64,000 nt of DNA. It comes from Escherichia phage vB_EcoM_EC001. Within the stretch, counting starts at the first letter, position 1; the number at the start of each line of letters is the position of its first letter. Both the position numbers and the translations under genes were made by a program. This document shows, piece after piece, positions 12,837 through 26,290 of the stretch. The stretch lies in the sequence record MN445185.1; one strand, given 5' to 3'. Below the pieces are notes generated by a model. The model was not told where the DNA came from and did not search any database. It worked only from the letters and a program-made list of their open reading frames with translations.

Positions 12837-13085
12837 ATGCAAAAAACAATCATCGGAATAACAGTTAGTTCTTTCTGTGGCTTCCCTACCCCACAAACAG
12901 AACCCCAATATTTAGGCGCAGGTAAACCCGATCCGGAAGTCCGTAAGTTGCGCGAAGAAGCAAAAGCCAGAGTTCTTACTGAGCTGGAATCGTTGCTTCA
13001 GTCTCCGGTTATTTCACAATGGGGTATGGCAATAGATGTCACTAGAACTGATCGACGAGGCCGTTATCTCCCACGACCTGTTTAA
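12837..13085 (+). CDS. hypothetical protein (82 aa)
   Basis: ATG immediately after upstream stop; AAAGGA SD; 3' end overlaps the macro-domain gene by 50 nt in another frame. Confidence 0.45.
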   Translation: MQKTIIGITVSSFCGFPTPQTEPQYLGAGKPDPEVRKLREEAKARVLTELESLLQSPVISQWGMAIDVTRTDRRGRYLPRPV

Positions 13086-13536
13086 CGCGCCTGAGCGCTT
13101 CAAGGTCGTTACAGTTAACTGTGTTGGTGCAATGGGAAGGGGCATTGCTTTGGCGTGCCGAGAACGCTTCCCATCGCTTTATAATGACTATCGCCAGAAA
13201 TGTCGTAAAGAGCAAATCGTTATCGGTGAGGTCTATTGTTATCCTGAGGAAGGGGTAATACTCCTTCCTACTAAAACCCATTTTCGCTATAAATCGCAGA
13301 TTTACTATGTCACGTCCGGCATTGATGCGCTGGCGCGACTAGGGGAAGACTTAGAAGGAGGGATTGCGATACCGCCCCTAGGGATGGCTAACGGTTGGTT
13401 ACGTTACCATGAGCGATTGGAAATCTTTATACACTTACAGAAACGACTACAGCACACGGAGCAGACTTATCGATTCTATTTACCGGACACATTGCTAAGG
13501 GAAGCAGAGAAAATCATCCCAAAAAGTTTCAAATAG
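13036..13536 (+). CDS. macro-domain protein, TARG1/DarG-like (166 aa)
   Basis: Motifs in order: HDLF…VNCVGAMGRGIALACRERFP, QIYYVTSG, GIAIPPLGMANGW, resembling the TARG1/OARD1/DarG macro subfamily as I recall it. Confidence 0.6.
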   Translation: MSLELIDEAVISHDLFNAPERFKVVTVNCVGAMGRGIALACRERFPSLYNDYRQKCRKEQIVIGEVYCYPEEGVILLPTKTHFRYKSQIYYVTSGIDALARLGEDLEGGIAIPPLGMANGWLRYHERLEIFIHLQKRLQHTEQTYRFYLPDTLLREAEKIIPKSFK

Positions 13537-13635: not shown

Positions 13636-14358
13636 ATGTTTCGCACCATTTTATTTCTTCTGGTAGCAGTGACCACATTCAACAGCAACGCTTCTTACCA
13701 GTCCACCAGTAACAAACATCAAAAAGAATTTGTCCTTATCCAGGACCAGTTCAATGAGATTAAACCTCTCATCGTCTCTGCATCTCGAAAACAAGGCGTA
13801 CATGCCGGGATGCTTGCGACCACCATTTACCGCGAATCCCGTTTTAATAAAAACGTGGGTAAGAATAAATCGAGCAGTGCTAGTAGTGTTGTCCAAATGA
13901 CGACAGGTACTAAACGCTCCATGATACGTCTGTATGGGAAACAACTTAACATCCCAAAGAACGCAGACCTTAATAAACCGAAATATGCTGTACAGCTTGC
14001 TGCTGTTTACATGAAACACATCGAGGATCATCTGACAAAACAACTCAAACGCAAGCCGAGCACAGCCGAAATTGCATTAGGCTACCGCTTCGGTGAGAGC
14101 GCTGCTGTTGCGATGATTAAAAAGAAATCATCGGTCGGGAAACGCTGGATGGACAGCTACCGAAAAGACGCAGCATTCTACGGTGCGAAAATGACGCCAC
14201 CGAAAGCTGAAACACGTCAGCTTGCTTTTGCGAAGGAAGACCGCGACCAACGCGTCGCTGAGCTTCAGAAAATCTGGGATACGCTGTACACCAAAATATC
14301 ACCTGCGGCCGGTACACTACTGGCAAATAACACTATCATGAAAGGAGCATTGCTTTGA
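13636..14358 (+). CDS. secreted protein, possible lysozyme-like/lytic transglycosylase (240 aa)
   Basis: Signal peptide; loose SLT-like segment YRESRFNKNVG…SVVQMTTGT; preceded by a 14-codon upstream ORF. Confidence 0.55.
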   Translation: MFRTILFLLVAVTTFNSNASYQSTSNKHQKEFVLIQDQFNEIKPLIVSASRKQGVHAGMLATTIYRESRFNKNVGKNKSSSASSVVQMTTGTKRSMIRLYGKQLNIPKNADLNKPKYAVQLAAVYMKHIEDHLTKQLKRKPSTAEIALGYRFGESAAVAMIKKKSSVGKRWMDSYRKDAAFYGAKMTPPKAETRQLAFAKEDRDQRVAELQKIWDTLYTKISPAAGTLLANNTIMKGALL

Positions 14359-14953: not shown

Positions 14954-14986
14954 GGTCAGACCTTCGGGTCTGACCACCTTTTATTT
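14954..14986 (+). terminator. intrinsic terminator
   Basis: GGTCAGACC-ttcg-GGTCTGACC then ACCTTTTATTT. Confidence 0.8.
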
Positions 14987-14999
14987 AATTCTTGGATGT

Positions 15000-15266
15000 G
15001 TGTTCGTGAAACGTTTAATAAATTTTCTCTACTGGATGGAGAAACGCTATAGCCACAACATTCCGATGATGTATAGTTTGTTATTCTCCACGGTAATGTT
15101 GGTAATCGGTGCGATAGTCGCGCATTTGATGGAACTCACCACTCCATGGGCGCAGCTTTTTCTCACCATCTGGATGTTGTTCTCAGGCTACCACATACGT
15201 GGTTTCATAACCCGATTCTTTCGCTGGCGTAGTACCTGGCATGTCTTTAATTCCGACCGTAACTAG
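15000..15266 (+). CDS. small membrane protein (88 aa; start uncertain)
   Basis: Hydrophobic ORF with two predicted TM segments; GTG 15000 or ATG 15036. Confidence 0.45.
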   Translation: MFVKRLINFLYWMEKRYSHNIPMMYSLLFSTVMLVIGAIVAHLMELTTPWAQLFLTIWMLFSGYHIRGFITRFFRWRSTWHVFNSDRN

Positions 15267-16479: not shown

Positions 16480-16516
16480 CTACCTACTCCCTTGGGAGTA
16501 GGTAGTTCTTTTTTTC
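16480..16516. terminator. bidirectional intrinsic terminator between convergent genes
   Basis: 11-bp stem CTACCTACTCC/GGAGTAGGTAG, loop CTTG; T-run downstream and A-run (AAAAAATAAAAG) upstream. Confidence 0.8.
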
Positions 16517-16517
16517 T

Positions 16518-17141
16518 TTAATTTGTTAACCCGTTATCTTTCAGGATTTTCAACATCGCATCATTCAACGCCTGCAGTTCTTGATTCTGCTTAGTGAGTG
16601 TTGCAACTTGTTCTGTCAGAGGAACCTGCTCACGGATTTTGGCTTTACGCACCGCTTCCATTTGCAAGTGTTCTTCTTCCGTCACCGTCCCTTCGTAATC
16701 CATCGATGTGATGTCCACACGTGCATCGATTCCTAAACCGCGTTCTAAGATGCTTTTCAGGTCGTTCGTTAGCAGTGTGACATCGACGTATTCGGGTATT
16801 AATGCCAGGTCAATAACCACCACATTGCGTCTATAATTTAACCCGTTCAGTCCAGGATACGTCTCAATGTACGTATCAGGCAACTCGTAGACTTGACCGT
16901 CCCTCGACTTTAATGTTACAATCGAGGCTTCGACATTAGCGTCGCTGATATAGTCGTCACGAGTTAGGCCGACAGGTTTATAATACTTGTTATAAACGTC
17001 AATATTATTACGTTGGAGTTTCGGAAAGTTCTGTACCGCGTCAACACGGTAAATCACTTTATCTGGCAACGTATAAGGTGCCTTAACCTTGAACAACCCC
17101 TCAAGGTTAACCTGAGGCGTGTTAGGCAACAGTTGTGCCAT
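16518..17141 (-). CDS. hypothetical protein (207 aa)
   Basis: Minus-strand ORF with AAGGAGGG SD directly after the upstream gene's stop; ends at the bidirectional terminator. Confidence 0.65.
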   Translation of the reverse strand: MAQLLPNTPQVNLEGLFKVKAPYTLPDKVIYRVDAVQNFPKLQRNNIDVYNKYYKPVGLTRDDYISDANVEASIVTLKSRDGQVYELPDTYIETYPGLNGLNYRRNVVVIDLALIPEYVDVTLLTNDLKSILERGLGIDARVDITSMDYEGTVTEEEHLQMEAVRKAKIREQVPLTEQVATLTKQNQELQALNDAMLKILKDNGLTN

Positions 17142-17151
17142 TTAACCCTCC

Positions 17152-18531
17152 TTAGGCTTTTGGCTCTGCCGCAGGAACATCCCAAATGGCCTTACGGGCC
17201 AAGACACGATATTCCACGTTATCGAATTCGAAGACGTAGAAGTAAACGTTAGGATCAACGTCGTCTACGAGCTTCACGATATCCAACGGGGTGGAGTGCG
17301 GATGGTACTCTTCGGCTGCAATTAACGCCTGGAAGAACAGATCCAACCACTCGGTGGTTTTCTTCGACATTCTCGCAATATCCGCATTATTAGTGCCGAT
17401 TAATGCGTAGTCAGGAATTGTGTCATGCAGGGTCGTTTTGCGTGAATCGTTTTCAGGGCCAGCGATAACCACGGCGTTCAACGATTTATAGATGGACGGT
17501 AAATCCGTTACATCGGTAGTTGGAATCGAGATCGCTCCACTATTTTTTTCCGTAATGGTTTGAACAGTCCACTCCCCAAATCGGGAGATTGCTTTGACCC
17601 AGAAATCATATGGGAGAATCGGCGAGTATAATGCCGCAACATCTTCCTCATTTGGAATCCCACGAATTGACCAACCGGGAACAATTGTGAACTTGGTGGT
17701 CGTAAAGATTTCTGGGAACACTTTGACACCCAACGCCACAGTAAAACTGGAGTTTGCCAAAATGTAATCACGTAACGCTTGTTTAATCCTGCTCGGGTTA
17801 CGACCCGCGCGTCCGTAGATGATAGCCGACATCGGTATCGGTAAGGTGGAGTCAAAGTCTTCCTGGTCGTGCCAAGTATAGATGTTAGTAATCAGGCTAG
17901 TGTACGGATAACCGTCAGCTAATTCGTTAATCTTATTATGGTGATCCGGAAGGTTGAACCCTTCCATTGCCTTTTCGACTACAGATTTCACAGCCAAGAA
18001 AGTATCAACCGGTAATATCGGCATTTGGACTTCAATTTCAAATCCAGTATAGTCCTGATTGAAATCTTCATCAGCAAACCAGAGAATAATCTGGTTATTT
18101 ACATCAGACGGGTCTTCGACTTTATCTGCTGTGGTTTCAAGTTTCCAACTGACCCAACGTGGGAACCAGTTACTGTTAGTCTGAATCATCGCGCCAGACT
18201 GAACACCGCTGATGACACTATTAAATTGCCCCAACAGCAAACGCTGGAATTCAACTTCGTCGTTTCTTAAGTTGCCCAGGATAGACTGTTGGTAGATCCA
18301 TTGGGAAACAGTAAGAACGTGGTCGCTAAAGACGGCCGGGGTCTTAATAGGCAACTCGTCACGTTTAGAAGTAAAAGCAACCAGTTCCACCTGCAGATTT
18401 TCTTTAGTAAAATACTGCTTGCTTTTAGCGAACGAATATGACAGCTCAGACAACTCACCTACCGGAGCGGTGTTGCCAGGGCCATTATCAATCAGAGCCG
18501 CTATTTGAATAAAGCCTTGTAAATCATACAT
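17152..18531 (-). CDS. hypothetical protein (459 aa)
   Basis: Long minus-strand ORF; GGAGAG SD 9 nt upstream; first gene of a two-gene minus operon. Confidence 0.7.
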   Translation of the reverse strand: MYDLQGFIQIAALIDNGPGNTAPVGELSELSYSFAKSKQYFTKENLQVELVAFTSKRDELPIKTPAVFSDHVLTVSQWIYQQSILGNLRNDEVEFQRLLLGQFNSVISGVQSGAMIQTNSNWFPRWVSWKLETTADKVEDPSDVNNQIILWFADEDFNQDYTGFEIEVQMPILPVDTFLAVKSVVEKAMEGFNLPDHHNKINELADGYPYTSLITNIYTWHDQEDFDSTLPIPMSAIIYGRAGRNPSRIKQALRDYILANSSFTVALGVKVFPEIFTTTKFTIVPGWSIRGIPNEEDVAALYSPILPYDFWVKAISRFGEWTVQTITEKNSGAISIPTTDVTDLPSIYKSLNAVVIAGPENDSRKTTLHDTIPDYALIGTNNADIARMSKKTTEWLDLFFQALIAAEEYHPHSTPLDIVKLVDDVDPNVYFYVFEFDNVEYRVLARKAIWDVPAAEPKA

Positions 18532-18555
18532 AATTAAAAACTCTCCGAGGTGAGC

Positions 18556-19065
18556 ATGATAGCATCAGTTTTCAAACTGCTTCCATTCTTACAGATGCTG
18601 TGGGAAGCATTTAAACCGGGCGAGGGGGAGAAAGTAACACGAGCCGGGAAGATAGTGACACTAGTGATAGTGGCACTGGTCGCGTTCTCTGCATTTGTCT
18701 CATATGCCTATATTGTTCAATACCACACACTGGTTAGCGTCCAATCGCGTACTCAGTATCTGGAGATATCCTATAAGGAGCTAAAAGAGAAGTCCGATCA
18801 TGGCGAAGTGGAGAACAATAAGCTGTACGATCGTCTCTTCACATGCCTGGGTTCTCGATCGCCATATGATGGTACCAAATCTCCAACAGGGACAGGCACT
18901 GGGGCCGCGGTTCCGCCTGAAGAACTCAAGCCGGTAACACCACAGGCACCGTTAAATCCGTCTAGCCCGCCTGCCAAGAAACACCAGGCGGCTTCTCGCC
19001 CAGTGGGGTCGCAGGCGGCAAACGATTTCCGACAGGAGATTATCAAGACGCTTAATAATCCATGA
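18556..19065 (+). CDS. membrane-anchored protein, possible i-spanin-like (170 aa)
   Basis: Start moved to ATG 18556 (GAGGTG SD); one N-proximal TM helix, then charged/coiled segment and Pro-rich C-terminus. Confidence 0.55.
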   Translation: MIASVFKLLPFLQMLWEAFKPGEGEKVTRAGKIVTLVIVALVAFSAFVSYAYIVQYHTLVSVQSRTQYLEISYKELKEKSDHGEVENNKLYDRLFTCLGSRSPYDGTKSPTGTGTGAAVPPEELKPVTPQAPLNPSSPPAKKHQAASRPVGSQAANDFRQEIIKTLNNP

Positions 19066-19074
19066 GGAGCATAC

Positions 19075-19554
19075 ATGAAGTTATTTTTGGTGGCGATACT
19101 GGTGCTATTGTTGACAGGATGCCCTGGGGTCATCCGTCACGTAGACCCAGATTACTCCTCAACCGGAGATTGGCCTTTTCGTCCTTTAGAACACCCACCA
19201 GTATATAACGGTGGGAACAGTCCTGAGGCGAAAAAGCTGGCAGGGAAAATGTTTGTTGCGGATGTGAACGCTTATGCTTATTACGTTTATCTGTACGCTA
19301 AGTCAGTAAACAACTATGCAGAAGCTAAAGGGTGGCACACCCCGATGACCGCACCGCTTTGTGAAGAGTTTATTCGCCCCACTCTTCATGGTATACCCTC
19401 CGGGATATATCTCGACCCTGGTTCTCGTAGCCCTCAAGACATTAGTCGTGATTTGTCACGACAGATTAAGTCTCTCATTCGCAGCTATCGCGAAGACAGA
19501 GAGTCTTTTAATCGTGCCTACGAACGGCACAAAAGTAGTTGCCTTGTGCAATGA
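19075..19554 (+). CDS. putative lipoprotein, possible o-spanin-like (159 aa)
   Basis: Signal peptide with lipobox LLTGC; GAGGAG SD; terminator follows. Confidence 0.6.
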   Translation: MKLFLVAILVLLLTGCPGVIRHVDPDYSSTGDWPFRPLEHPPVYNGGNSPEAKKLAGKMFVADVNAYAYYVYLYAKSVNNYAEAKGWHTPMTAPLCEEFIRPTLHGIPSGIYLDPGSRSPQDISRDLSRQIKSLIRSYREDRESFNRAYERHKSSCLVQ

Positions 19555-19559
19555 AAACT

Positions 19560-19597
19560 CCCTCTTACCTTCGGGTAAGAGGGGATTTCCTTTTTTA
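19560..19597 (+). terminator. intrinsic terminator
   Basis: CCCTCTTACC-ttcg-GGTAAGAGGG then GATTTCCTTTTTTAC. Confidence 0.8.
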
Positions 19598-19642: not shown

Positions 19643-20362
19643 ATGACCTATCCTAAAATTCTGCCTGTTTTAACGCCCACCGTTGTTGTTGGGACGGACT
19701 TAGAGACCCTGGCTTTACGTCCAGATGCCTACATCTTAACGTTGGCAAACGTGGCATTCGATGTTCCGACAATGAAAATGATCGGTTCATGTTACCACAA
19801 AATCGACCCCAATGATGCAAAAGCAAAAGAAATCTTCTACATCGATCCACAAACGGTCGGTTATTGGGAAGGTAAAGGCGACCCCGAATACGCACCGAGC
19901 GAGAAAGCACGTATTGAAGCGTTTTCTGGGACCACACCACTGCCAGAAGCACTGTGGGCGGCCAAAAAATGGTTGGATGATCTGGGCAACGTGAAAATGG
20001 TTATCACCATGCGCGGTCCCGATTTCGATGCTCCAATTCTGATGAACGCATTTGCACAGTGCGATATCCCGCCGGGCAAGTACCGCAAGTTTTCTATTTT
20101 GGACTCTGACCGGACTGCAGAACGTATTGCATATGCGTTTGGCTTGGAACCTAACTGGCACGCAGAAGCCCACCACTGGACCCGTGGCAAAGAAGCGTAC
20201 GAGCATAACGCTAACTTTGATGCTGCGAAGGAAGCGTATTCTACGGCACGCATCTATCATTTGGCCCTGGTCGCGCGTACGTACGGCTTCGAACGCATGT
20301 TAGAAGCCCACCGCGAAATGTGCACAGGTGAATACATTCCACCGCAGTTGCGAGGAGAATAA
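19643..20362 (+). CDS. DEDDh-family 3'-5' exonuclease (239 aa)
   Basis: Exo I-like VVGTDLET (D-x-E), Exo II-like GPDFDAPILMNAF, Exo III-like HNANFDAAKEAY (H-x4-D). Confidence 0.65.
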   Translation: MTYPKILPVLTPTVVVGTDLETLALRPDAYILTLANVAFDVPTMKMIGSCYHKIDPNDAKAKEIFYIDPQTVGYWEGKGDPEYAPSEKARIEAFSGTTPLPEALWAAKKWLDDLGNVKMVITMRGPDFDAPILMNAFAQCDIPPGKYRKFSILDSDRTAERIAYAFGLEPNWHAEAHHWTRGKEAYEHNANFDAAKEAYSTARIYHLALVARTYGFERMLEAHREMCTGEYIPPQLRGE

Positions 20363-21876
20363 TGAAAGACGTCGACGTAGCGGTTATTTATACCGATGGT
20401 AGTCATACTGAGTCCCCGAAAGGTTCGGGGGCTGGTATTCATGGTTATTTATTCAACAACGGAGATTTGGAAGACAGTCAGGCTTATAGCCATCCGGGTG
20501 TTTCAGAACGGATTACCACTGTTGGATACAAAAAAGTGCCGCAGGATGTGAAGTGTCCGGAGTTGCCGGACACCGTTCAATTTGTCGACGCCGTTATTCC
20601 CGTTCCGAAAGAGTTCTACTCAGATGTGGGCGAGTTAATCGCCTTCATCACGTTGTTTGAGAACGCACCCTTCCGCGCGAAGAACTATATTATCTACGTG
20701 GATGCCAGTTATGTTGTAAACACTTTTAACGAGTGGATAGACGGCTGGCATAAACGTGGTTGGGTTCGTGCTGACGGTACTCCGCTGGCGAACAAAGAAC
20801 TTATTGTTCGTATCTGGGAAATCAAACAGCAGATGAAAAAAGAAGGACGGGGTGTTAAGGTTATCAAAATCAAAGGACACTCCGGCCACTACGGTAACGA
20901 CCGGGCGGACGAATTGGCTAGAAAAGGTTCAGCTATCACAGCGACCAACGACGGCGTTCCATATCAGCCGTACTGGTCGAAGGATGAGTTGCCTGCATCC
21001 GCGGAACCCGAGCCCATCGCCGCTGGGATGAACCTTGCGGCATATCCGCCGATTTGTACGGTTAAATATTGCTATCCGTTGGTGAACGAGGACCATCCTA
21101 CTGTAAAAGTGAAAGATGAAACTTTCTATTACATGTTTGGTGGCAACCATGCAAAGAACAAGGACGACTTGGTGTTTATTGGGAAAATGATTCCTGATGC
21201 ACACTTTTCCGTAATGTTCACTAAACAACCGTGGGATAACATCTACACGATTGTAAACAACCACGCCGCCCTGGCATGGAAAGATACACCGAAGATGCGG
21301 CAGTATGATCCAATCGGCGTTGTTAACAATGAGTTCGTTAAACGTAAGAAGTTCGTTGACGTGGCAGGTGATGGATTACCAGCAGACAAGATGCATTTCA
21401 GTGGAGAAGATTCCAACGTCTGGTTCTTTGAAGACCTGGCCATCTCCAGAATGCTTCGCCCACCCTTATTGTCGTACCGTGCGCTGGATATTCGTGACGA
21501 ACTCGCTACAACGTTGCGTGATGTTCTGCATCAGGAAAAGGGTTATGTCTTAAACGATATTACCGACTTGCTATTCGACGACAAAGGTAAACCTGTCAAG
21601 GAATACTACCGCAGCGTCGATAAGTCAATAACGTTAAAGATTGACTTTCCGATGGGTAAACGACCTGTCTCGGTTATTTTGACGCGTGGTATCGATATTC
21701 CATCGCGTACGGAAATCAACCGTATTAAAGAACCGGAAGGCCGTTATTACATCGCGGTGTGTCGTCCTGAAAAATACTACATCCGTTACTTCTTAATCTA
21801 TATCGGTAAAGAGTATCATGGGTTGTGGTGTGCGTATTACGCAAACCGTCGCATACTGCGAGAAGAAGAGGTGTAA
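20362..21876 (+). CDS. RNase H (type 1) domain fused to ~310-aa C-terminal domain of unknown function (504 aa)
   Basis: N-terminal ~190 aa align by eye to E. coli RNase HI catalytic motifs: VIYTDGS, ELIAF (Glu), IIYVDASYV (Asp), WHKRGW, KIKGHSGHYGNDRADELARKG. Confidence 0.85.
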   Translation: MKDVDVAVIYTDGSHTESPKGSGAGIHGYLFNNGDLEDSQAYSHPGVSERITTVGYKKVPQDVKCPELPDTVQFVDAVIPVPKEFYSDVGELIAFITLFENAPFRAKNYIIYVDASYVVNTFNEWIDGWHKRGWVRADGTPLANKELIVRIWEIKQQMKKEGRGVKVIKIKGHSGHYGNDRADELARKGSAITATNDGVPYQPYWSKDELPASAEPEPIAAGMNLAAYPPICTVKYCYPLVNEDHPTVKVKDETFYYMFGGNHAKNKDDLVFIGKMIPDAHFSVMFTKQPWDNIYTIVNNHAALAWKDTPKMRQYDPIGVVNNEFVKRKKFVDVAGDGLPADKMHFSGEDSNVWFFEDLAISRMLRPPLLSYRALDIRDELATTLRDVLHQEKGYVLNDITDLLFDDKGKPVKEYYRSVDKSITLKIDFPMGKRPVSVILTRGIDIPSRTEINRIKEPEGRYYIAVCRPEKYYIRYFLIYIGKEYHGLWCAYYANRRILREEEV

Positions 21877-24759: not shown

Positions 24760-25298
24760 AAATATTCATTGATTTACTCGATGACGAATTTCGCGAAATA
24801 TTTCCAGCGGCGTTGTTCGAGTTTAAACGCAAGTGTGAAGACTATCTAATACCGAAGAATATCGATCGTCAGCACCTCGCCGGGCTTATCTCTGCGGCGT
24901 ACGTCAACATCGCGGTAAATGAAGTTCATCAACTCGCCCAGCGTATTGCGTGTTTCGAATACAACGACGAAGACATTGAAGACGGCTTCCTGCAGTCTAA
25001 GATGGGTCGCTTCTCACTCGAACTCAAGACCGATGAAGTTATTGATAAGGTCGGTAAAGCGTTTGATGAAATGAAAGACATCGAAATGATGATTAAAATG
25101 TCTGGACCGGAAGCTGGGCCGTTGAAAGAAGCGTGGGAAAATCTCAACCGCGAAGGGTATAAAAAGATGTATATGGAGGAGTTCACCACTATGCTACGTC
25201 ATCTCGAAGCGCAGATCTGGGAGCATATCGTTTCACGTCTGAAAGAAATACTGATTGTGGTCGAACCAATGCAGCCCATCACTATTGGCAATTTCTAG
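24756..25298 (+). CDS. hypothetical protein (180 aa)
   Basis: ATGA overlap with upstream gene; terminator follows. Confidence 0.6.
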   Translation: MKIFIDLLDDEFREIFPAALFEFKRKCEDYLIPKNIDRQHLAGLISAAYVNIAVNEVHQLAQRIACFEYNDEDIEDGFLQSKMGRFSLELKTDEVIDKVGKAFDEMKDIEMMIKMSGPEAGPLKEAWENLNREGYKKMYMEEFTTMLRHLEAQIWEHIVSRLKEILIVVEPMQPITIGNF

Positions 25299-25302
25299 TT
25301 AA

Positions 25303-25337
25303 ACGGACACTCTTCGGGGTGTCCGTAGTTTTATTTT
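25303..25337 (+). terminator. intrinsic terminator
   Basis: ACGGACAC-(tcttcggg)-GTGTCCGT then AGTTTTATTTT, running into the TTAATCGACCATTA motif. Confidence 0.7.
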
Positions 25338-25349
25338 AATCGACCATTA
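25336..25349 (+). promoter_or_regulatory. conserved 5'-leader motif TTAATCGACCATTA
   Basis: Directly after terminator T-run; ends 18 nt before ATG 25367. Confidence 0.35.
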
Positions 25350-25366
25350 ATCTAAAGGAGTATTAA

Positions 25367-26290
25367 ATGGACAGCTTTCTTTTTGATTTGGCAGAATCGG
25401 TAAATGTAGATGTAATCGGTATGCGCGAATCCCCGAGTAATTTCTTAAACGGTCTTACTAAAATCGACGAACGTGTGAAATCCAGAAGTGGAGATCCCGC
25501 CATCATCGAGCAATACGCAATAGCCCATTGTGGCGAGATAGGCCAGCACTTTATACCGATTGAGGCGTTCCTAAAGAACTGCTTCGCCGAAGAATGCACC
25601 GCAGACTTCCTGTCTCTTGCCTACGGCTGGCGATACGGGGGTATCCAAATGGAATTTGATCTTAATATTTTTGAACAAGTTCTACTTGGCGACGTTCTCA
25701 CTGAGATACCACGCAGCTGGATAGACAAGATTCCCGGTTGGGCCGTCTCCTTTTCAGTGTGCTATCGCGCTAAAGATATCGGTATCCAAGAAAAGACTTA
25801 CGTTTTCGGTCGGCGAATGTTTAAAGGGAAAGATTGTTTAACAATGATGATTTTTGGAAAACGTATCGAGGGGGAAACCTTTGAAATCGTGGACGTGGGT
25901 GACGGCTTTGTATCCTTGCGTGTGGCGGAAACTGGTACGCCGGCCAATGAGAAAACGTTACGCATTGTCGGCGCTACCATGTTTACATTCTCACTGATCC
26001 CGCACAACCCTACACCCGTCAAACTGAGACAATTAACTGGAAAGAAACGTATCGCCAATTACCACATTGAACCAAAATCTAAACCGACTGTCCTCTCCAC
26101 CGTAAAAGCACAAAGCGAGTATCTTGAAGAATTTGATACTGATACGGAGAAAAGAACACAAGGTAGCAGATGTGCGCATATGCGTCGTGCACACTGGTGT
26201 ACTTACTGGCTCGGTCCACGTGACGGGAATCGGACAAAGATTTTGAAATGGATACCGCCGACATTTGTCAACGGTTCTAAATGCAAATAA
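25367..26290 (+). CDS. hypothetical protein (307 aa), Cys/His-rich C-terminus
   Basis: AAAGGAG SD preceded by TTAATCGACCATTA motif; C-terminal RCAHMRRAHWC…SKCK could bind metal (speculative). Confidence 0.65.
   Translation: MDSFLFDLAESVNVDVIGMRESPSNFLNGLTKIDERVKSRSGDPAIIEQYAIAHCGEIGQHFIPIEAFLKNCFAEECTADFLSLAYGWRYGGIQMEFDLNIFEQVLLGDVLTEIPRSWIDKIPGWAVSFSVCYRAKDIGIQEKTYVFGRRMFKGKDCLTMMIFGKRIEGETFEIVDVGDGFVSLRVAETGTPANEKTLRIVGATMFTFSLIPHNPTPVKLRQLTGKKRIANYHIEPKSKPTVLSTVKAQSEYLEEFDTDTEKRTQGSRCAHMRRAHWCTYWLGPRDGNRTKILKWIPPTFVNGSKCK

Follow-up and report, generated by a model that had tools for sequence, protein, structure and literature searches.

In phage lambda the two-component spanin Rz/Rz1 pairs a type-II inner-membrane protein, helical in its periplasmic domain, with an outer-membrane (OM) lipoprotein, and has periplasmic cysteines; its genes are embedded, and Rz1 is short, Pro-rich and unstructured. 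The functionally validated spanin of T4, PseT.3/PseT.2, is of the separated type, with non-overlapping genes for the inner-membrane subunit (i-spanin) and the OM subunit (o-spanin). The T4 spanin genes are located away from the holin and endolysin genes, and a location in the lysis cassette is therefore not obligatory. In a census of 677 phage genomes, 586 of which had recognisable spanins, two periplasmic cysteines were the commonest o-spanin pattern, and both are essential in PseT.2 (PMC6139136). The same census (Kongari 2018) lists CR5_183 (168815-169330) and CR5_184 (169340-169786) of Cronobacter phage CR5 as a separated i-spanin (SIS) and a separated o-spanin (SOS), each a singleton family and assigned by bioinformatics only, from membrane signals and adjacency; phage SPN3US is absent from it (PMC6139136). 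Among the nucleus-forming jumbo phages, the spanins gp141/gp141.1 of phiKZ have been validated by complementation of lambda RzamRz1am, and they adjoin the holin gp142 and the endolysin gp144 (PMC12894885). Here we describe a gene pair on a 64,000-nucleotide stretch of Escherichia phage vB_EcoM_EC001 (record MN445185.1; "the window"). The open reading frames (ORFs) 18556-19065 and 19075-19554 are orthologs of SPN3US_0204 and SPN3US_0205 (gp204 and gp205), and on balance they are likely to encode the functional separated two-component spanin of this phage, belonging to a family catalogued by bioinformatics.

Megablast assigned the region to Seoulvirus, the SPN3US group among Salmonella jumbo phages, with identities over 4 kb of 99.2% to JN03 and 97.2% to SPN3US. 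A model that had seen only the letters and the ORFs had called the two genes a possible spanin-like pair (the original prediction). The ORF list confirmed both ORFs at the coordinates and on the plus strand that it had given, and its account of the products also held: gp204 has one N-proximal transmembrane (TM) helix followed by a charged, partly Pro-rich periplasmic part, and gene 19075 encodes a lipoprotein with the lipobox LLTGC. The features of the pair, including those taken from AlphaFold2 (AF2) models with their predicted local distance difference test scores (pLDDT), are as follows.

18547-18554, plus strand: Shine-Dalgarno sequence GAGGTGAG of gp204, read from the sequence, ahead of the ATG at 18556
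18556-19065, plus strand: gp204-like gene, 169 amino acids (aa) in the ORF list, ortholog of SPN3US_0204, candidate i-spanin
18556-18651, plus strand: predicted cytoplasmic N-terminal segment, aa 1-32, with the amphipathic motif K-LLPFLQ-L-EAF-PG and a net charge of +2
18652-18717, plus strand: single TM helix, aa 33-54 (IVTLVIVALVAFSAFVSYAYIV), maximum hydropathy 2.46 (mean Kyte-Doolittle value over 19 residues)
18718-18855, plus strand: predicted periplasmic stalk helix, aa 55-100, ending at Cys97; helical in the fused AF2 model, pLDDT 84-89
18856-19011, plus strand: Pro-rich linker, aa 101-152, predicted to be disordered; 11 Pro in 52 residues, pLDDT <50
19012-19062, plus strand: C-terminal short helix or motif, aa 153-169 (NDFRQEIIKTLNNP), presumed lipoprotein-binding end; helical in the fused model, pLDDT ~74
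19064-19069, plus strand: Shine-Dalgarno sequence GAGGAG of gp205, read from the sequence, overlapping the gp204 stop codon
19075-19554, plus strand: gp205-like gene, 159 aa in the ORF list, ortholog of SPN3US_0205, OM lipoprotein, candidate o-spanin
19075-19122, plus strand: signal peptide II, read from the sequence, with lipobox LLTG↓C (Cys16) and Pro, not Asp, at position +2
19222-19542, plus strand: folded domain, aa 50-156; AF2 model from 55 sequences, mean pLDDT 90.7
19559-19597, plus strand: intrinsic-terminator-like hairpin (19559-19584) with T tract closing the pair; GC-rich 11-bp stem, TTCG loop

The gp204-like protein is 95.9% identical to its counterpart in SPN3US and 100% identical to that in JN03. 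The start at 18556 is preferred over the one annotated in SPN3US, which corresponds to window position 18595, because distant homologs, including that of CR5 (33% identity), align from residue 1; the SPN3US annotation is 13 codons too short. The hydropathy scan detected no further hydrophobic segment beyond aa 33-54, and a topology with the N-terminus in and the C-terminus out is consistent with hydropathy and the positive-inside rule, the two grounds on which it was assigned. In the AF2 model the periplasmic part consists of the 46-residue helix, in which 13 of 46 residues are charged, a disordered Pro-rich linker of about 50 residues and the short C-terminal helix. The original prediction had named topology and coiled-coil prediction as a check: hydropathy gives a single N-in TM domain, and in the model the helix aa 55-100 is followed by a remainder that is largely Pro-rich linker. 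In the gp204 homolog of CR5 a coiled coil is predicted at residues 66-99, just 19% of its length (PMC6139136).

Comparison of the TM partners from 6 metagenomic contigs and 9 phages showed that all 15 share an N-terminal amphipathic motif, one TM domain, a heptad-like helix and, at the very end of the chain, a C-terminal motif. The N-terminal motif is kept in enteric, Vibrio and metagenomic partners, and Cys97 in 12 of 15 long-form partners. A motif of the type R..(I/L)(I/L)..(I/L)N forms the extreme C-terminus of all long-form partners, in versions such as FRQEIIKTLNN, RMDKITRHINN, RLRMIDNINES and ARLIDLIND, and we expect this end of gp204 to be the one that would bind the lipoprotein. The TM partner of Vibrio phage pVa-21 (locus L010, 2847-3146) is annotated without its N-terminal 40 residues; its correct start is at position 121558 of the record.

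The second protein, gp205, has a mature length of 144 aa. According to the AF2 model its lipidation site is followed by an unstructured tether of about 33 residues (aa 17-49) and then by a first helix (aa 50-84, 7 of 35 residues aromatic), an ordered loop (aa 85-119) carrying Cys96, a second helix (aa 120-154) and Cys156. We read the domain as a helical hairpin that a putative disulfide would staple. To collect the family, 11 lipoproteins were made into a profile, and a search of 1.84 billion representative proteins with it yielded 50 clusters at 50% identity, 45 of them with E <1e-10; lengths range from 76 to 206 aa, the shortest being fragments. A lipobox is present in 50 of the 55 sequences of the enlarged alignment, none with Asp at +2, and 46 of these 50 lipobox-bearing members have exactly two periplasmic cysteines. 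C96 and C156 are the sole invariant columns of the alignment, and the spacing between the two cysteines is 59-62 residues in all gp205/gp156 lineages checked (gp156 being the phiKZ relative discussed below). A Foldseek search of the PDB with the gp205 model gave no match better than E 5.6, and the significant matches in BFVD were to the same family only; a k-mer-seeded homolog search likewise returned close relatives only.

The two genes are separated by 9 nt, and in homologous pairs with listed coordinates the intergenic gap ranges from -4 to +10 nt. They form a compact two-gene unit, probably with translational coupling, judging from their spacing and signals. We scanned for ORFs encoding an N-terminal TM domain and a soluble tail that are followed or overlapped by an ORF with a lipoprotein signal. 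The scan recovered the positive controls, phiKZ gp141/gp141.1, phiKZ gp156.1/gp156 and gp54 of Serratia phage PCH45 with its embedded ORF, and it found exactly one pair in each of three sequences, the 64-kb window, 237.9 kb of SPN3US and the whole pVa-21 genome of 232 kb; each time this sole pair was of the gp204/gp205 type. In SPN3US (NC_027402) a stricter scan, for lipoproteins alone, added one more, encoded on the minus strand at 137623-138114 (163 aa, lipobox LLAG↓C), which is without a TM partner. A second SPN3US "endolysin" (135425-136042; 205 aa) lies on the other strand, 1.6 kb from this lone lipoprotein; it contains the motif EAGYVNNPKD, which we take to be GH108-like.

Sigma-70-type promoter matches occur at chance level in the region, as expected because the phage uses its own RNA polymerases. 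Terminator-like sites number 15, compared with 7.4 +/- 2.9 expected from shuffled sequences, and the hairpins at 14954-14975, 16480-16505 and 19559-19584 split the region into separate transcription units. These three strong GC-rich hairpins have TTCG- or CTTG-type tetraloops followed by T tracts and mark the ends of gene clusters; the one at 16480-16505 is bidirectional and lies between convergent genes.

Against the criteria for the two-component class (Summer 2007; Kongari 2018), the pair shows a single N-terminal N-in TM domain, an o-spanin gene immediately downstream, a lipobox without Asp at +2 and periplasmic cysteines. For the class, at least one such cysteine in either subunit is required, to form homotypic disulfides. 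Moreover, the spanin reading is already catalogued for this family, by bioinformatics, through CR5: gp204 and CR5_183 share 32.8% identity at 99% coverage (tblastn E 7e-11), gp205 matches the C-terminal half of CR5_184 (tblastn E 9e-6), and the two pairs agree in gene order, in a gap of 9-10 nt and in their flanking genes, so that sequence divergence is the only difference. The likeness to T4 PseT.3/PseT.2 extends to non-overlapping genes outside the holin-endolysin cassette and to an o-spanin that exceeds Rz1 in size, with a helix at its C-terminus and exactly two conserved periplasmic cysteines. Sequence similarity between the T4 proteins and the pair was not detected in any search, and there are differences: PseT.3 has two helices and no Cys, whereas the linker of gp204 is long and Pro-rich and the protein usually has one Cys, and the 144-aa hairpin protein gp205 compares with an 83-aa o-spanin in T4 (PMC6139136). 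With lambda Rz/Rz1 the pair shares the membrane topology of both subunits and the periplasmic cysteines. Here, however, the genes are separated rather than embedded, and the Pro-rich part is on the inner-membrane protein gp204 while the folded helices are on the lipoprotein gp205.

The annotation of the pair is sparse. In PHROGs, gp204 belongs to phrog_8719 and gp205 to phrog_8165, both of function unknown. All 74 phage records matching gp204 have it as "hypothetical protein" or unannotated, and the same holds for gp205 in the records inspected; the record of SEGD1 annotates neither gene. The literature searched contained no discussion of SPN3US gp204 or gp205 and no SPN3US transcriptome. In several of the SPFM5-SPFM20 records (LR535903-LR535917) the tblastn matches to gp204/gp205 are broken into 3-8 pieces, which suggests many frameshift errors in several SPFM assemblies and accounts for odd "homologs" such as P0007-P0010 and P0056.

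The genes surrounding the pair were also analyzed; those with a bearing on lysis or on the limits of the unit are the following.

13636-14358, plus strand: SLT transglycosylase, SPN3US_0198 (gp198), "putative endolysin"; Pfam SLT PF01464 E 3e-6, phrog_4067 transglycosylase
15006-15266, plus strand: 86-aa protein with two hydrophobic helices, SPN3US_0200 (gp200), holin/pinholin candidate
16518-18531, minus strand: inverted virion module, gp202 (DUF7194) and gp203 (virion structural protein), divergent from gp204
19643-21876, plus strand: Rv2179c-like exonuclease and RNase H-like genes (gp206, gp207), downstream of the pair

The original prediction had stated that no holin or endolysin is adjacent to the pair. 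This was too strong: although not directly adjoining, the SLT gene (start 4.9 kb, end 4.2 kb upstream) and the gene of the two-TM-domain protein (end 3.3 kb upstream) are close by, the latter separated from the pair by four genes, two of which are the inverted virion genes. The catalytic part of the SPN3US_0198-like protein matches the catalytic domain of the phiKZ endolysin gp144 (tblastn E 4e-10). Whereas gp144 carries an N-terminal peptidoglycan-binding domain, the window protein begins with MFRTILFLLVAVTTFNSNA, followed by SY, which looks like a cleavable signal peptide or a signal-arrest-release (SAR) anchor. The SPN3US_0200-like 86-aa protein is a candidate holin or pinholin by virtue of its size, its helices and its position. 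It has a sub-threshold match to Pfam DUF4231 (E 4.5e-4; 21.0 bits with a cutoff of 24.7 bits), and proteins of 84-86 aa with 2-3 TM domains are found beside the SLT gene at the equivalent place in two metagenomic loci (L026, 869-1123; L029, 273-533).

An SLT gene stands at this relative position also in CR5, Phobos, ChrisDB, pVa-21 and metagenomic loci, and all related loci examined keep the gp202/gp203 module where it lies here. One gene order recurs in Seoulvirus, Machinavirus, Derbicusvirus, Vibrio phages and metagenomic contigs: macro-domain protein, SLT transglycosylase, 1-3 small genes, inverted DUF7194 and virion genes, TM protein, lipoprotein, Rv2179c-like exonuclease and RNase H-like protein. 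From this gene order, the conserved neighbourhood of the pair looks like a lysis region that is split by two inverted virion genes. The macro-domain protein directly upstream of the SLT gene (window 13036-13536 and 12837-13085, both plus strand) has a Pfam Macro match of E 2e-4, just under the cutoff; its pairing with the SLT gene is kept in CR5, Phobos, ChrisDB and pVa-21, where it is annotated as "Appr-1-p processing protein".

The genes of SPN3US (NC_027402) that follow the homologs of phiKZ gp139/gp140 include nothing spanin-like. They are 84978-85550, encoding 190 aa with a soluble N-terminal domain of about 100 aa and two hydrophobic segments, and 85648-86286, encoding a soluble protein of 212 aa. 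By position they are the equivalents of the phiKZ holin gp142 and the lysis regulator gp143, and they are without spanin or endolysin genes beside them. An identification of the 190-aa membrane protein with gp142 by sequence was dropped, the two being in different PHROGs without a PHROG-level link.

We propose the following course of events, which starts from the gene structure, membrane signals, fold, conservation, synteny and genome uniqueness of the pair described above, and in which subunit interaction, disulfide chemistry, timing and membrane-disrupting activity are what we infer. The gp204 protein would insert into the inner membrane with its N-terminus in and its C-terminus out, projecting a helical stalk of about 7 nm, the Pro-rich linker and the short C-terminal helix. 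Lipidated at Cys16, gp205 would be sorted to the OM's inner leaflet, where its disulfide-stapled hairpin would hang on the tether of about 33 residues. Binding of the gp204 C-terminal motif to this hairpin would give a complex that reaches across the periplasm, threaded through the peptidoglycan. After destruction of the murein by the SLT endolysin gp198, the complexes, now free, would collapse and fuse or disrupt the OM, and lysis would be complete.

Several observations weigh against this assignment. Large and, according to the AF2 model, well folded, gp205 is unlike o-spanins of the Rz1 type, which are short, unstructured and Pro-rich. Neither protein gave a meaningful match in Pfam or NCBIfam, and the spanin families, such as PF23793 LysC and NF038368 P2_Rz1, gave none even at E values up to 10. 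The interaction of gp204 with gp205 is a putative one, the fused-chain AF2 model (15 paired rows; mean pLDDT 67.7) consisting of scores without coordinates or predicted aligned error. Throughout the gp204/gp205 family the assignment as spanin is a bioinformatic one, and being the only candidate in the genome does not prove it, because about 13% of the census phages are without a recognisable spanin (PMC6139136). A further point comes from phiKZ. The slot between the virion gene gp157 and the gene of gp155, the phiKZ ortholog of the RNase H-like protein of the window, holds gp156.1 (96 aa, one TM domain) and gp156 (lipobox LISG↓C), and the C-terminal domain of gp205 is homologous to gp156: hhalign of the mature proteins gave a probability of 93.9% and E 1.7e-7 over 66 columns, with the two cysteines in register, whereas control comparisons gave E 0.04-0.15. 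In addition, gp156 (phrog_15897) matches the hidden Markov model (HMM) of the gp205 family phrog_8165 (E 1.8e-6), and the gp205 profile found the gp156-like protein P0058 with a library-wide E of 1e-4. The gp156.1/gp156 pair coexists with the validated spanins gp141/gp141.1 and does not substitute for them; the gp204/gp205 family is therefore not simply "the spanin" everywhere. The claim of a spanin-like pair thus stands in part: the hallmarks, the sole pair in the genome and the catalogued CR5 homologs speak for it, and the folded gp205 and the homology to gp156 against it.

The gp156.1/gp156 arrangement is also found in PhiPA3 (gp180/gp179), 201phi2-1 (gp242/gp241), Phabio, PS119XW and Psa21. 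Like gp204, the TM partners of the Pseudomonas phages have an N-terminal amphipathic segment, one TM domain and a basic C-terminal motif, but they are only 93-96 aa long and without the Pro-rich linker, and the lipoproteins are without the first, aromatic-rich helix of gp205. Pairwise BLASTP of gp204/gp205 with phiKZ gp156.1/gp156 and gp141/gp141.1 gave nothing, and the lipoproteins are linked by profile methods only. Homology among the TM partners (the long form, the Pseudomonas short form and PCH45 gene 68) was considered and not retained, the HMM comparison (E ~0.6) being no better than a lambda Rz control and hhalign giving E 0.02-0.15; long- and short-form partners may correspond, to judge from their position and architecture. 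The overlapped spanin gp141/gp141.1 of phiKZ, a member of the same virus family, is not homologous to gp204/gp205 and has another genomic place. Its lipoprotein gp141.1 matches Pfam PF23793 LysC (Rz1-like; E 3.6e-10), as gp205 and gp156 do not, and the idea that gp141.1 is a paralog of gp156, suggested by eye from a mid Cys followed by a PP motif, was dropped for this reason.

The i-spanin gp54 of Serratia phage PCH45 (MN334766) is of the classical kind, with an embedded lipoprotein ORF, and is located away from the slot of the pair. This ORF, MMLIACLTMVSLVG↓CGQ..., is Pro-rich and unannotated and lies at 25215-25484 on the minus strand, in the +1 frame of gene 25186-25722. The slot syntenic to the pair (record 73634-74158) encodes a 174-aa TM protein only, without a lipoprotein; the "gp54 Rz-like spanin" was rejected as the syntenic gene because it lies elsewhere in the genome. 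Thus, SPN3US and pVa-21 have the long-form pair and no other candidate, as does CR5, for which the census gives only this pair, whereas lineages with a canonical Rz/Rz1-type pair have either a shortened partner (phiKZ and 201phi2-1, 95-96 aa) or no lipoprotein (PCH45). In this small sample, the distribution fits one in which the long-form pair and the Rz/Rz1-type pair complement each other. On balance it is likely that the pair is the original spanin of the virus family, that lineages which later acquired Rz/Rz1 kept a reduced version, and that the long-form lineages still depend on it. Less probable, but a serious possibility, is that the pair represents an ancestral family-wide envelope-spanning module, which phiKZ- and PCH45-like phages keep shortened or without the lipoprotein beside horizontally acquired Rz/Rz1-type spanins. 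To this possibility belongs, equally tentatively, a non-canonical build with a Pro-rich tether on the inner-membrane subunit and a disulfide-stapled, aromatic-rich hairpin on the OM lipoprotein.

The strongest rival to a spanin is a conserved envelope-spanning module of the Chimalliviridae whose main job is not disruption of the OM, SPN3US-like phages then being without a recognisable spanin; we hold this to be distinctly less probable. Such a module could be a periplasmic tether or sensor for superinfection exclusion or lysis timing, or an envelope anchor earlier in infection. The lipoprotein domain and the gene slot are kept from Salmonella and Vibrio phages to six Pseudomonas-phage genera, and the retention of the reduced form across these genera means that it still does something, which keeps another or a dual function alive. 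The same reading gains from the coexistence in phiKZ with the near-essential gp141/gp141.1, from a conserved folded lipoprotein with invariant Asn, Tyr and Trp positions that is more like a specific binding module than a fast-evolving o-spanin, and from the lysis-inhibition-like behaviour of phiKZ, in which the pair could be the periplasmic sensor. In phiKZ the pair is co-transcribed with the essential gene of the RNase H-like gp155 and not with a lysis cassette (PMC12571901). Transposon insertion sequencing (TnSeq) of phiKZ left gp156 and gp156.1 with 0 insertions after trimming, and for gp141 and gp141.1 it recovered a single insertion apiece, of 3 reads; we rejected this as proof that gp156 and gp156.1 are essential, however, since it is confounded by the polarity that co-transcription with gp155 entails. 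The pair of the window, by comparison, ends in a terminator of its own and is not joined to the RNase H operon, it shares a conserved neighbourhood with an SLT endolysin-like gene, SPN3US and pVa-21 have no spanin-type pair other than the long form, and the positive evidence points to no specific alternative function.

That the two genes act independently appears improbable. Phage exclusion lipoproteins are known, and gp205 could be such a lipoprotein, or a receptor-masking one, of the Llp/Cor type, with gp204 as a holin or antiholin of class III topology. Indeed, the single N-in TM domain and the periplasmic domain of about 115 aa of gp204 resemble the gross topology of the T4 holin T (PMC12894885). 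The retention of the TM protein without a lipoprotein in PCH45 is the sole hint of independence, and it is set against a tight coupling of the genes (gap of -4 to +10 nt) that are co-inherited across very divergent lineages, a conserved C-terminal motif in the TM partner that is suited to partner binding, and the presence in SPN3US of other holin-like candidates, namely gp200 and the protein that corresponds by position to phiKZ gp142. It is more improbable still, and largely refuted, that the products are virion components, or that the ORFs are not expressed genes. The pair does adjoin the virion structural gene gp203, but the annotations of SPN3US, phiKZ and 201phi2-1, in which the neighbours carry virion labels based on mass spectrometry, give neither protein such a label; the SPN3US head proteomics paper is without gp204, and the only "gp205" in it is that of PhiPA3. 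Strong Shine-Dalgarno sequences, the terminator and deeply conserved signal sequences argue for real exported proteins. Together, the resemblance to T4 PseT.3/PseT.2, the conservation of the SLT neighbourhood and the uniqueness in the genome favour a separated two-component spanin as the role of gp204/gp205.

Beyond what the literature searched contains, we find that the family spans nucleus-forming jumbo phages, that its lipoprotein is, in a confident model, a folded hairpin unlike Rz1, and that phiKZ has a homolog beside its proven spanins. SPN3US serves as the genetic model for nucleus-forming jumbo phages of enterobacteria, and annotation of its lysis genes is lacking. A testable lysis map would follow from taking gp204/gp205 as the spanin and gp198 as the endolysin, with gp200 or the positional equivalent of phiKZ gp142 as the holin candidate; lysis behaviour is of importance in producing phages and in phage therapy. 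If the SLT protein is exported without a holin, the control of lysis in SPN3US-like phages differs from that in phiKZ. The coexistence of the two pairs in phiKZ poses the question of whether the gp156 pair is a second OM system or a module with another role. If the pair is an ancestral envelope-spanning module, phiKZ- and PCH45-like phages would have two systems for OM disruption, or else a second envelope function, for instance superinfection sensing for lysis inhibition or a role tied to the gp155 operon. If confirmed as an o-spanin, the folded hairpin of gp205, without a structural relative in the PDB, would widen the structural range of spanins.

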